DNA of 64,000 bases from Escherichia coli. GTDB taxonomy: Bacteria > Pseudomonadota > Gammaproteobacteria > Enterobacterales > Enterobacteriaceae. The translations under genes were made by a program, and so were the position numbers. The stretch lies in the NCBI RefSeq assembly GCF_003334815.1, contig NZ_QOWO01000002.1; one strand, written 5' to 3'. Each line of letters begins with the position of its first letter. Position 1 is the stretch's first letter. The notes beneath the pieces are model-generated. The model was not told the origin of the DNA and ran no database searches. It worked only from the letters and a program-made list of their open reading frames with translations. Below, piece after piece: positions 10,383 through 37,227 of this stretch.

Positions 10383-11747
10383 ATGTCTTTCGATTCTTTG
10401 GGTTTAAGCCCTGATATCCTGCGCGCCGTTGCCGAGCAGGGTTACCGTGAACCCACCCCTATTCAGCAGCAGGCGATCCCTGCGGTGCTGGAAGGCCGCG
10501 ACCTGATGGCTAGCGCCCAGACCGGCACCGGCAAAACAGCGGGCTTTACGCTGCCGCTGTTGCAACACCTGATCACTCGCCAGCCGCACGCCAAAGGGCG
10601 TCGTCCGGTACGTGCGCTCATTCTTACCCCGACCCGTGAACTGGCGGCGCAGATTGGCGAAAACGTCCGTGATTACAGCAAATACCTGAACATTCGTTCG
10701 CTGGTGGTGTTTGGTGGTGTGAGTATTAACCCGCAGATGATGAAACTGCGTGGCGGCGTTGATGTGCTGGTGGCAACCCCGGGACGTTTGCTGGACCTGG
10801 AACATCAGAATGCAGTGAAGCTGGATCAGGTTGAAATCCTCGTCCTCGATGAAGCTGACCGCATGCTCGACATGGGCTTTATCCACGATATCCGTCGCGT
10901 GTTAACAAAACTACCTGCGAAGCGCCAGAACCTGTTATTCTCCGCGACCTTCTCTGACGATATTAAAGCCCTGGCGGAAAAACTGTTGCACAACCCGCTG
11001 GAAATCGAAGTGGCACGCCGCAATACCGCGTCTGATCAGGTGACCCAGCACGTTCACTTTGTCGATAAGAAACGCAAACGCGAATTGCTGTCGCACATGA
11101 TTGGGAAAGGGAACTGGCAGCAGGTGCTGGTGTTTACCCGTACCAAACACGGCGCTAACCATCTGGCTGAACAGCTCAATAAAGATGGCATCCGTAGTGC
11201 GGCGATCCACGGCAATAAATCGCAAGGTGCGCGTACTCGTGCGCTGGCTGATTTTAAATCGGGCGATATTCGTGTACTGGTGGCAACTGACATCGCTGCG
11301 CGCGGCCTGGATATTGAAGAGCTGCCGCACGTCGTCAACTATGAACTGCCAAACGTACCTGAAGATTATGTCCACCGTATCGGGCGTACCGGTCGTGCGG
11401 CTGCTACCGGTGAAGCGTTGTCGCTGGTGTGTGTTGATGAACACAAACTGCTGCGTGATATCGAAAAACTGCTGAAAAAAGAGATCCCGCGCATTGCGAT
11501 TCCGGGCTATGAGCCGGACCCGTCAATCAAAGCCGAACCGATCCAGAACGGTCGCCAGCAACGTGGCGGCGGCGGTCGTGGGCAAGGTGGTGGTCGCGGT
11601 CAACAGCAACCACGCCGTGGGGAAGGTGGCGCAAAATCTGCAAGCGCGAAACCTGCAGAAAAACCGTCTCGCCGCCTCGGCGATGCCAAACCGGCAGGCG
11701 AACAACAACGTCGCCGCCGTCCGCGTAAACCTGCCGCTGCGCAGTAA
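10383..11747 (+). CDS. rhlE: ATP-dependent DEAD-box RNA helicase RhlE
   Basis: ORF track 454 aa; Walker [13 protein letters not shown] box (VLDEADRM), Arg/Gly-rich C-terminal tail. Confidence 0.95.
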
Positions 11748-11799
11748 TCTTTTATGCCGGGCTATGCCCGGCATCAGGCTGATGAACAAACGCAAAACT

Positions 11800-11900
<101 letters not shown>

Positions 11901-11978: not shown

Positions 11979-12461
11979 TTACTTCTCTATAGCCAATTGT
12001 TCGCGCAACTCCATTAAAAGGTAGCCCAGTCGATTCTTGCCCTTACCATGACCACCGTCTCCCCAGTAAGCATCGTTTTCCGTATGCTCAACCAGTTTTG
12101 CGGGCGCGGTTGCCAGCAAGAGCGCACGCAGTTCTGCATGCTGTTCGAATTTAGCGCGAAGTGCTTTTCGCATCACCTGTTCTTTGACCGACTCCCAGTT
12201 TTTACGCAGAGGCTTAGAACGATCGCGCCCCATGCGTGCGGCGACCATAGGGGAAGAAACCCGACGGATCTCTTCGCGGTATTTTTCATCAAGGAATTTT
12301 TGTGCCTGAAAATAGTGTTCTGAGGTGGGCCAGGTTTTCCCGTCAACCTTGATGGGCCAGGCGGCAAAGTTAGAAAAATCACCGTAGTCATCGCTGGTGC
12401 TGTAGAAATTTATGATGGTGTCTTGCATGACGTGTTGGATCCTTTGTGCTCGAACGGGCAT
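11979..12461 (-). CDS. ybiA: YbiA/NADAR-family N-glycosidase
   Basis: ORF track 160 aa; divergent from dinG. Confidence 0.85.
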   Translation of the reverse strand: MPVRAQRIQHVMQDTIINFYSTSDDYGDFSNFAAWPIKVDGKTWPTSEHYFQAQKFLDEKYREEIRRVSSPMVAARMGRDRSKPLRKNWESVKEQVMRKALRAKFEQHAELRALLLATAPAKLVEHTENDAYWGDGGHGKGKNRLGYLLMELREQLAIEK

Positions 12462-12580: not shown

Positions 12581-14731
12581 ATGGCATTAACCGCCGCGCT
12601 TAAAGCGCAAATTGCCGCCTGGTATAAGGCGCTTCAGGAACAGATCCCCGACTTTATTCCCCGTGCGCCGCAGCGGCAGATGATTGCGGACGTCGCCAAA
12701 ACGCTGGCCGGAGAAGAAGGGCGACATCTGGCGATTGAAGCCCCCACCGGCGTTGGGAAAACGCTCTCTTATTTGATTCCCGGCATCGCCATTGCCCGCG
12801 AAGAGCAAAAAACGCTGGTGGTGAGTACCGCCAACGTGGCATTGCAGGATCAGATTTACAGCAAAGATTTACCGCTGCTGAAAAAGATCATTCCCGATCT
12901 TAAATTCACTGCCGCTTTTGGGCGTGGGCGCTACGTTTGTCCGCGTAATCTGACGGCGCTCGCCAGTACTGAACCCACGCAACAGGATCTGCTGGCGTTT
13001 CTTGACGACGAACTGACGCCGAACAATCAGGAAGAGCAAAAACGTTGTGCGAAGCTGAAGGGCGATCTCGATACTTATAAATGGGATGGTCTGCGCGATC
13101 ATACTGATATCGCTATAGATGACGATCTCTGGCGTCGTTTAAGTACCGACAAAGCCAGCTGCCTCAACCGCAATTGTTACTACTATCGTGAATGCCCGTT
13201 TTTTGTCGCTCGTCGGGAGATTCAGGAAGCGGAAGTGGTGGTGGCAAACCATGCGCTGGTGATGGCGGCGATGGAAAGCGAAGCGGTATTGCCTGACCCG
13301 AAAAATTTACTGCTGGTGCTGGACGAAGGCCATCACCTGCCGGATGTGGCGCGGGATGCGCTTGAGATGAGCGCCGAAATCACCGCGCCGTGGTATCGGC
13401 TACAGCTGGACTTGTTCACGAAACTGGTCGCTACCTGCATGGAGCAGTTTCGCCCGAAGACCATCCCACCGCTGGCGATCCCTGAACGTTTGAATGCGCA
13501 TTGTGAAGAGTTGTATGAGCTTATCGCCTCGTTAAACAACATTCTCAATCTCTACATGCCTGCCGGGCAGGAGGCAGAGCACCGTTTTGCGATGGGCGAA
13601 CTGCCAGATGAAGTGCTGGAGATCTGCCAGCGGCTGGCAAAACTCACCGAGATGCTGCGTGGCCTGGCGGAGTTATTTCTTAACGATTTAAGTGAGAAAA
13701 CCGGCAGCCATGACATTGTACGTCTGCATCGGTTGATTTTGCAGATGAACCGCGCGTTGGGGATGTTCGAGGCGCAAAGCAAACTCTGGCGGCTGGCTTC
13801 GCTGGCGCAATCTTCCGGTGCACCGGTGACCAAATGGGCGACGCGGGAAGAGCGCGAAGGGCAGCTACACCTCTGGTTTCACTGCGTGGGAATACGTGTC
13901 AGCGATCAGCTGGAAAGGCTGCTGTGGCGCAGTATTCCGCACATTATTGTCACCTCCGCAACCTTGCGTTCGCTGAACAGTTTTTCGCGTTTGCAGGAGA
14001 TGAGTGGTCTGAAAGAGAAAGCGGGCGACCGTTTTGTGGCGCTGGATTCCCCCTTTAACCACTGCGAACAGGGCAAAATTGTTATTCCCCGGATGCGCGT
14101 TGAGCCTTCCATCGACAACGAAGAGCAGCATATTGCCGAAATGGCGGCCTTTTTCCGTAAGCAGGTGGAGAGCAAAAAACATCTCGGTATGTTGGTACTG
14201 TTTGCCAGCGGACGGGCGATGCAGCGCTTTCTCGACTATGTGACGGATTTACGTCTGATGTTGCTGGTTCAGGGCGATCAGCCGCGTTACCGTTTAGTTG
14301 AACTGCACCGCAAACGCGTCGCCAACGGTGAGCGCAGCGTGCTGGTGGGCTTACAGTCATTTGCCGAAGGGCTTGATTTGAAAGGTGATCTGCTCAGCCA
14401 GGTGCATATCCACAAAATCGCTTTTCCGCCCATCGACAGCCCGGTGGTGATCACCGAAGGGGAATGGCTGAAAAGCCTCAACCGCTATCCGTTTGAGGTG
14501 CAAAGCCTGCCGAGCGCCTCGTTTAACCTGATTCAGCAGGTTGGGCGACTGATTCGAAGCCACGGTTGCTGGGGCGAAGTGGTTATCTACGACAAACGCT
14601 TGCTGACCAAAAATTATGGCAAGCGACTACTGGATGCATTACCGGTATTTCCGATAGAGCAACCGGAAGTCCCTGAAGGTATAGTTAAAAAGAAAGAAAA
14701 AACGAAATCCCCACGCCGTCGGCGGCGTTAA
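12581..14731 (+). CDS. dinG: ATP-dependent DNA helicase DinG (SOS-inducible, Fe-S helicase)
   Basis: ORF track 761 aa; start trimmed to MALTAALKAQ (716 aa) downstream of the LexA box; Walker A EAPTGVGKT, DEGH box (VLDEGHHL), Cys cluster. Confidence 0.9.
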   Translation: MALTAALKAQIAAWYKALQEQIPDFIPRAPQRQMIADVAKTLAGEEGRHLAIEAPTGVGKTLSYLIPGIAIAREEQKTLVVSTANVALQDQIYSKDLPLLKKIIPDLKFTAAFGRGRYVCPRNLTALASTEPTQQDLLAFLDDELTPNNQEEQKRCAKLKGDLDTYKWDGLRDHTDIAIDDDLWRRLSTDKASCLNRNCYYYRECPFFVARREIQEAEVVVANHALVMAAMESEAVLPDPKNLLLVLDEGHHLPDVARDALEMSAEITAPWYRLQLDLFTKLVATCMEQFRPKTIPPLAIPERLNAHCEELYELIASLNNILNLYMPAGQEAEHRFAMGELPDEVLEICQRLAKLTEMLRGLAELFLNDLSEKTGSHDIVRLHRLILQMNRALGMFEAQSKLWRLASLAQSSGAPVTKWATREEREGQLHLWFHCVGIRVSDQLERLLWRSIPHIIVTSATLRSLNSFSRLQEMSGLKEKAGDRFVALDSPFNHCEQGKIVIPRMRVEPSIDNEEQHIAEMAAFFRKQVESKKHLGMLVLFASGRAMQRFLDYVTDLRLMLLVQGDQPRYRLVELHRKRVANGERSVLVGLQSFAEGLDLKGDLLSQVHIHKIAFPPIDSPVVITEGEWLKSLNRYPFEVQSLPSASFNLIQQVGRLIRSHGCWGEVVIYDKRLLTKNYGKRLLDALPVFPIEQPEVPEGIVKKKEKTKSPRRRRR

Positions 14732-17054: not shown

Positions 17055-17172
17055 ACGTAGCGTAAACGCCTGATCCGTCCAACGGTTCGGATTTTGTAGG
17101 CCTGATAAGACGCGGTAGCGTCGCATCAGGCATCTGTTGCCGGATGCGGCGTAAACGCCTTATCCGTCCTAC
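17055..17172. repeat. REP (repetitive extragenic palindrome) cluster between hcxB and ybiJ
   Basis: Repeated GCCTGAT...CGCATCAGGC and TGCCGGATGCGGCGTAAACGCCTTATCCG units. Confidence 0.8.
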
Positions 17173-37126: not shown

Positions 37127-37227
37127 GCCTGATGCGCTACGCTTATCAGGCCTACGCAGTACCTGCAATATATTGAATCTGCAGGACTTTGTAGGCCGGA
37201 TAAGGCGTTAACGCCGCATCAGGCATT
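37127..37227. repeat. RIP/BIME-type element downstream of ybiT (direct-repeat partner of 11800-11900)
   Basis: Same REP-IHF-REP arrangement, same orientation as the rhlE copy. Confidence 0.8.

Follow-up and report, generated by a model that had tools for sequence, protein, structure and literature searches.

Disordered C-terminal extensions of RhlE helicases, and their probable roles, are already in the literature, and the tail of Escherichia coli RhlE is a typical member. The Pseudomonas aeruginosa proteins RhlE1 and RhlE2 belong to the same family, and their extensions likewise lie directly after the RecA2 domain and a conserved linker. These tails raise RNA binding and promote phase separation, and the intrinsically disordered region (IDR) of RhlE2 in addition boosts unwinding and provides a contact with RNase E (Hausmann et al., 2021 and 2024; PMC8266600 and PMC11260450). 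The RhlE1 tail has ~70 residues and is Lys rich and that of RhlE2 has 255 (PMC11260450), whereas the E. coli tail has 64 and is rich in Arg, Gly, and Gln; the tails share no sequence similarity.

Within E. coli, RhlB resembles RhlE in having a short, Arg-rich, unstructured extension after the DEAD-box core (residues 397 to 421 or 398 to 421; PMC7611231, PMC3814787), and RhlB lacking this basic tail binds RNA more weakly and loses all RNA stimulation of its ATPase (PMC7611231). Unlike the RhlE tail, however, that of RhlB is only ~25 residues long and has no Gly-rich block. Furthermore, RhlB requires RNase E for activity and binds residues 696 to 762 of RNase E through its core, whereas RhlE is active alone and uses a different site on RNase E (PMC1616957). 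Full-length E. coli RhlE interacts in vitro with RNase E as well as with poly(A) polymerase, it can substitute for RhlB in a degradosome assay, and in multicopy it is reported to suppress the cold sensitivity of a csdA deletion (PMC1616957). It also forms foci (PMC7414142, PMC13106914). The DEAD-box paralogues DeaD/CsdA and SrmB likewise have disordered C-terminal extensions, form foci, and colocalize with RhlE (PMC7414142, PMC12758526), although their tails differ from that of RhlE in sequence and length. DeaD and SrmB have clear cold-sensitive ribosome assembly phenotypes, whereas E. coli lacking rhlE grows without any noticeable phenotype (PMC1616957), such that any contribution of the tail to fitness must be subtle.

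The gene studied here lies in a 64-kb stretch of E. coli DNA (the window), and its identification as rhlE in an earlier note based on the sequence was borne out. The 454-residue product scored 981.6 bits against the NCBIfam RhlE equivalog model NF007882 (PRK10590; cut-off, 743), and the match ran from end to end (residues 1 to 454 against profile positions 1 to 456 of 456), so that the profile covers the tail as well. The rhlE DNA of the window is 100% identical in nucleotide sequence to annotated rhlE of E. coli chromosomes, a match annotated as rhlE was found in 5424 of the 5426 complete E. coli genomes, and the flanking genes are those expected in E. coli, with cecR (ybiH) upstream on the opposite strand and ybiA and dinG downstream. 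The scores against the RhlE1-type model NF053711 (559.4 versus a cut-off of 750 bits, with a match to residues 1 to 382 only) and the RhlE2-type model NF053710 (622.9 versus 925 bits) both fell below the cut-off, which makes the dissected Pseudomonas tails analogues of the E. coli tail and not its orthologues. The gene and the parts of its product are as follows (window coordinates).

10383 to 11747, plus strand: rhlE coding sequence from the open reading frame list, 454 codons plus a TAA stop codon at 11745 to 11747.
10383 to 11507, plus strand: DEAD-box helicase core, residues 1 to 375 (RecA1 and RecA2), from Pfam, PDB matches, and the AF2 model.
11508 to 11552, plus strand: conserved linker, residues 376 to 390, part of the folded unit, from AF2 pLDDT and conservation among homologues.
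11553 to 11621, plus strand: Gly/Arg/Gln block of the tail, residues 391 to 413, with a tri-RG pattern at residues 394 to 406, from entropy, the AF2 model, and indels.
11622 to 11708, plus strand: variable Ala/Lys/Pro/Ser middle of the tail, residues 414 to 442, with short repeat units (e.g., AKPAGE).
11709 to 11732, plus strand: conserved terminal basic motif RRRRPRKP, residues 443 to 450, followed by AAAQ at 11733 to 11744.

RhlE is a DEAD-box RNA helicase of superfamily SF2: Pfam assigned a DEAD domain (PF00270) to residues 25 to 196 (5e-49) and a Helicase_C domain (PF00271) to residues 232 to 339 (4e-30), and the GxGKT and DEAD residues were invariant in both alignments (A1 and A2). In a PDB search, whose hits included no RhlE structure, solved DEAD-box structures aligned only up to residue ~365 to 378. 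The tail alone gave no match in a sequence search of the PDB with E values of up to 10, and Pfam placed no domain in it. An AF2 model built on an alignment of 102 diverse sequences was informative (pTM 0.80), with pLDDT values mostly between 86 and 98 in the core, 97 for residues 371 to 380, and 86 for residues 381 to 390, whereas residues 391 to 454 had a pLDDT of ~50 and were modeled as coil, to which DSSP assigned no secondary structure. A shallow alignment of 30 near-identical enterobacterial sequences yielded a model that was poor throughout (mean pLDDT, 46.7). Because pLDDT falls after residue 390, we place the linker in the folded unit and the start of the predicted disordered tail at R391 (nucleotide 11553).

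In the Enterobacteriaceae the linker is strongly conserved, and 118 of 120 close homologues have the pattern EPI.NGR. Distant RhlE relatives retain the linker in part (G-F/Y-E-P ... P ... R); G375, F/Y376, P386, and R391 were still the commonest residues at their positions in relatives of ~50% identity. It looks like an RhlE-specific addition to the folded core and not a part of the disordered tail. In P. aeruginosa, RhlE1 cut at residue 379 is poorly soluble, whereas RhlE1 cut at residue 392 is stable (PMC11260450). This result would fit the E. coli boundary if the two segments are equivalent. The earlier note had set the tail at 11560 to 11747. The tail itself stood, but its start did not, as position 11560 is one base out of frame and translates to an unrelated peptide: codon 393 starts at 11559, the quoted QQRGGGG begins with Q392 at 11556, and the natural boundary is R391 at 11553.

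The description of the C terminus as Arg/Gly rich and of low complexity was correct, and the C-terminal residues quoted for it agree exactly with the translation of the 454-residue open reading frame. Residues 391 to 454 (64 residues; nucleotides 11553 to 11744) comprise 14 Gly, 13 Arg, 9 Gln, 9 Ala, 6 Pro, and 5 Lys residues, among others, and carry a net charge of +14, with 18 Arg or Lys residues and a single hydrophobic residue. With the core of the same protein as the reference composition, the numbers of Gly (14 of 64; P = 1e-4), Arg (13 of 64; P = 1.4e-3), and hydrophobic residues (1 of 64; P = 6e-10) make it clear that the composition of the tail is not a chance effect. Among the 78 stop-free stretches of at least 150 residues in the window, the minimum of the 25-residue entropy fell in the tail (1.84 bits, versus 2.47 for the runner-up). 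Together with the pLDDT of ~50 and the near absence of hydrophobic residues, this entropy upholds the disorder proposed in the earlier note, as a prediction, and on these predictive grounds residues 391 to 454 qualify as an IDR. The middle of the tail contains a 15-nucleotide tandem repeat of 1.9 copies at 11629 to 11657. We conclude that the tail is a genuinely Gly/Arg-rich, positively charged, and predicted disordered segment of the kind already described for the RhlE family.

In eukaryotic RGG/RG boxes, such as those of FUS, nucleolin, and several DEAD-box proteins, Arg residues sit amid runs of Gly in a disordered region, as they do in RhlE. These boxes are linked to degenerate RNA binding and to condensates. 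Arginine methylation regulates the eukaryotic RGG boxes and is not expected in E. coli. In the classification reportedly set out by Thandapani et al. in 2013, tri- and di-RGG boxes are defined as RGG-x(0-4)-RGG(-x(0-4)-RGG), and tri-RG boxes are defined as RG-x(0-4)-RG-x(0-4)-RG. We rejected membership in the strict RGG-box class because the tail contains a single RGG, at residues 394 to 396, and matches neither the di-RGG nor the tri-RGG pattern. The tri-RG pattern is present as RG-x3-RG-x4-RG at residues 394 to 406 and was found only in the rhlE tail among the 78 stop-free stretches of the window. Compared with the eukaryotic boxes, however, this RG block spans only 13 residues and has no aromatic residues nearby, and the tri-RG pattern is kept in just 20 of the 120 close homologues. 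It is also broken within E. coli, by one extra Gly in the O157:H7 allele. The label "RGG-type" that had been given to the tail therefore overstates what is there, one RGG triplet, although it correctly drew attention to an RG-rich block that includes a tri-RG.

Beyond the stop codon, outside the protein tail, the window contains further structured elements.

11754 to 11774, plus strand: 9-bp perfect GC-rich hairpin, ATGCCGGGC-tat-GCCCGGCAT, 7 nucleotides after the rhlE stop codon.
11821 to 11863 and 37148 to 37190, minus strand: matches to Rfam ES036/CssrF.
17099 to 17169, minus strand: match to Rfam naRNA4/CssrE.

The hairpin has a predicted RNA folding energy of -19.6 kcal/mol (z = -2.8). 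Because its stem is not followed by a run of T residues, it falls outside the canonical intrinsic terminators, and it was not among the sites called by the terminator scan; it may stabilize the 3' end or act as a terminator stem. The scan did return a terminator-like site on the minus strand inside the coding sequence (11683 to 11669), which we discarded as being at chance level (three sites found versus 2.4 expected). REP-like palindromic repeats occupy positions 11815 to 11877 in the rhlE-ybiA intergenic region, and we tentatively read the ES036/CssrF and naRNA4/CssrE matches as REP-derived families. Among E. coli strains, ybiA downstream of rhlE varies: strain 20KM2300 (L005; NZ_CP151059.1) has an IS621-family transposase downstream of rhlE, and isolate 30821_1#274 (L003; NZ_OZ040963.1) has a truncated NADAR-family pseudogene there. 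Farther downstream, a short basic run (...KKKEKTKSPRRRRR; 14690 to 14731, plus strand, at the end of dinG) likewise forms the C terminus of the DinG helicase. The dinG start codon is GTG at 12446 in the open reading frame list (761 residues), versus 716 residues in the RefSeq annotation.

The 120 close homologues, from Escherichia, Salmonella, Citrobacter, Klebsiella, Enterobacter, Kosakonia, Cronobacter, and other genera, share a common layout of a Gly/Arg/Gln block, a variable Ala/Lys/Pro/Ser middle, and a terminal RRRRPRKP-like motif. The middle is built of units such as AKPAGE or PRR, contains from zero to five [KR]P[AST]G units per tail, and is expanded in Kosakonia, Cronobacter, and Franconibacter. 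The pattern RR..PR[KR] lay within the last 16 residues in 111 of the 120 close homologues, versus 2 of 144 distant representatives, the latter drawn from RhlE-like clusters at ~50% identity. In this distant set, tails vary in length (median, ~150 residues), sequence, and the balance of Arg to Lys, and since an alignment of them is meaningful for composition only, we relied on composition statistics. A net-positive tail of at least 30 residues was present in 137 of 143 distant representatives; the net charge was at least +8 in 122 of the 143, and hydrophobic residues made up less than 15% of the tail in 105. Charge is thus kept while sequence and length vary, and what is conserved across the family is a basic disordered tail rather than any particular motif.

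Sequence variation near and within E. coli bears on whether the tail peptide is maintained at all. By the method of Nei and Gojobori, applied separately to the tail and core for each comparison sequence, dN/dS for the tail was 0.10 in the comparison with E. marmotae and 0.17 in that with Salmonella, versus 0.02 for the core in each case (core range, 0.01 to 0.02), and the tail has evolved at 5 to 10 times the rate of the core. Judged by these ratios, the tail is under purifying selection, though it evolves faster than the core. It is the most polymorphic portion of rhlE within E. coli: matches of 90 to 95% identity were seen for the tail in 1976 E. coli genomes and for the whole gene in 13. 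All length variants among the sampled E. coli alleles were in frame and fell in the Gly/Arg block, within 11565 to 11600. Seen in loci L001, L003, L008, L009, and L010, they comprised one Gly fewer, one Gly more, and the loss of a GRGQGG unit, the last being a six-codon deletion that leaves an RhlE of 448 residues, and slippage in GGN/CGN repeats could account for them. Outside the block the tail of these strains was invariant, and so was RRRRPRKP in all of the E. coli alleles inspected.

One might suppose that the tail is neutral low-complexity sequence, generated by slippage in GGN/CGN repeats and tolerated as harmless, and its fast evolution, the indels found within a single species, the differing numbers of repeat units between genera, and the lack of a noticeable growth phenotype of the rhlE deletion all favor such an origin. 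We nevertheless consider it very unlikely. The dN/dS ratios are far below 1, and in one E. coli allele that is 6% divergent in DNA, the changes in the tail were 15 synonymous and 0 nonsynonymous. None of the sampled E. coli alleles had a frameshift or truncation in the tail, the tail DNA was covered in 5424 of the 5426 complete genomes, and both the terminal motif and, despite complete sequence turnover, the net positive charge in 137 of 143 distant relatives have been conserved. It is scarcely conceivable that the conservation instead reflects a nucleic acid element or an overlapping gene in 11553 to 11747 and not the RhlE peptide. There are alternative-frame open reading frames at 11494 to 11805 (plus strand, 103 residues) and 11523 to 11795 (minus strand, 90 residues), and weak inverted repeats pair 11558 to 11574 with 11670 to 11686, but long alternative-frame open reading frames are expected in GC-rich, stop-poor sequence, and Rfam gave no hit inside the coding sequence. 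Moreover, dS in the tail was at least as high as in the core in all three comparisons (0.30 versus 0.27, 0.54 versus 0.45, and 1.63 versus 1.00), and since synonymous rates in the tail are not reduced, an overlapping gene or nucleic acid element is excluded as the cause of the conservation.

We think it reasonably probable, and the most likely of the mechanisms considered, that residues 391 to 454 act as a flexible, sequence-nonspecific electrostatic RNA tether on a standard DEAD-box core, a role that would also confer multivalency. With Gly, Gln, Pro, and Ala between them, the 18 Arg and Lys residues would make contacts along the RNA backbone and thereby raise the local concentration of RNA at the helicase core, leading to higher RNA affinity, RNA-stimulated ATPase activity, and unwinding. 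Because such a tail would be multivalent, it would also favor the RNA-dependent gathering of RhlE into foci or condensates, as well as contacts bridged by RNA with RNase E and other partners. We infer this mechanism from the published truncations of homologous and paralogous tails, whereas the anatomy, predicted disorder, composition, purifying selection, and family-wide basic tail come from the present analysis. RNA binding and association with the degradosome or with condensates, the roles suggested in the earlier note, likewise agree with the published work on RhlE, RhlE1/RhlE2, and RhlB. Our search of the literature turned up no mutated or truncated form of the E. coli RhlE tail and no report of which part of E. 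coli RhlE contacts RNase E, of any partner mapped to the tail, or of foci that depend on it.

The conserved RRRRPRKP end suggests that there is more to the tail than bulk charge, which argues against a pure tether. An alternative, in our estimation rather unlikely, is that the tail serves mainly for protein docking, with RRRRPRKP and perhaps the PRR or KPAG units acting as short linear motifs (SLiMs) and RNA binding being secondary. The RNase E scaffold, RraA, poly(A) polymerase, the ribosome, and other helicases could be considered as partners, each only tentatively. In favor of docking, 111 of the 120 enterobacterial homologues and every inspected E. coli allele retain the terminal motif, whereas the middle of the tail is free to vary. 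[quoted passage not shown] However, that RhlE2-RNase E interaction is reported to be RNA dependent (PMC8266600), the motif is clade specific (2 of 144 distant representatives), the literature searched yielded no E. coli RhlE partner mapped to the tail, and RNA binding could just as well account for the conservation of a run of five Arg/Lys residues. The narrower proposal that RRRRPRKP (residues 443 to 450) is a dedicated SLiM for an acidic partner surface, such as that of RraA or the second helicase site of RNase E, seems to us doubtful to a similar degree. Still less likely is that the main selected role is RNA-dependent phase separation, bringing RhlE together with DeaD and SrmB in cytoplasmic condensates, with any effect on catalysis as a by-product. 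RhlE does colocalize with DeaD-marked condensates (PMC12758526), large cross-linked particles contain it at a 9.2-fold enrichment (PMC13106914), and the Arg/Gly/Gln composition of the tail is of the type common in condensate-prone regions. With 64 residues, however, the tail is short, and it has no aromatic residues; the foci were observed with tagged or overexpressed protein, and none of the sources consulted describes E. coli RhlE without its tail; in addition, the Pseudomonas IDRs also alter RNA binding and unwinding, so the roles are not separable. Partner docking, condensate formation, and the favored RNA tether are not mutually exclusive.

Since RhlE C-terminal extensions are already in the literature, the E. 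coli tail adds no new kind of element. What our analysis adds is the boundary at R391, a modular description of the tail, the recognition of the Gly/Arg block as a hot spot of in-frame indels, and the identification of RRRRPRKP as its most conserved part. These points could guide the design of truncation constructs. If the SLiM reading were true, the tail would have two separable functions, with the Gly/Arg block serving RNA binding and condensates and the terminal peptide serving to recruit partners.
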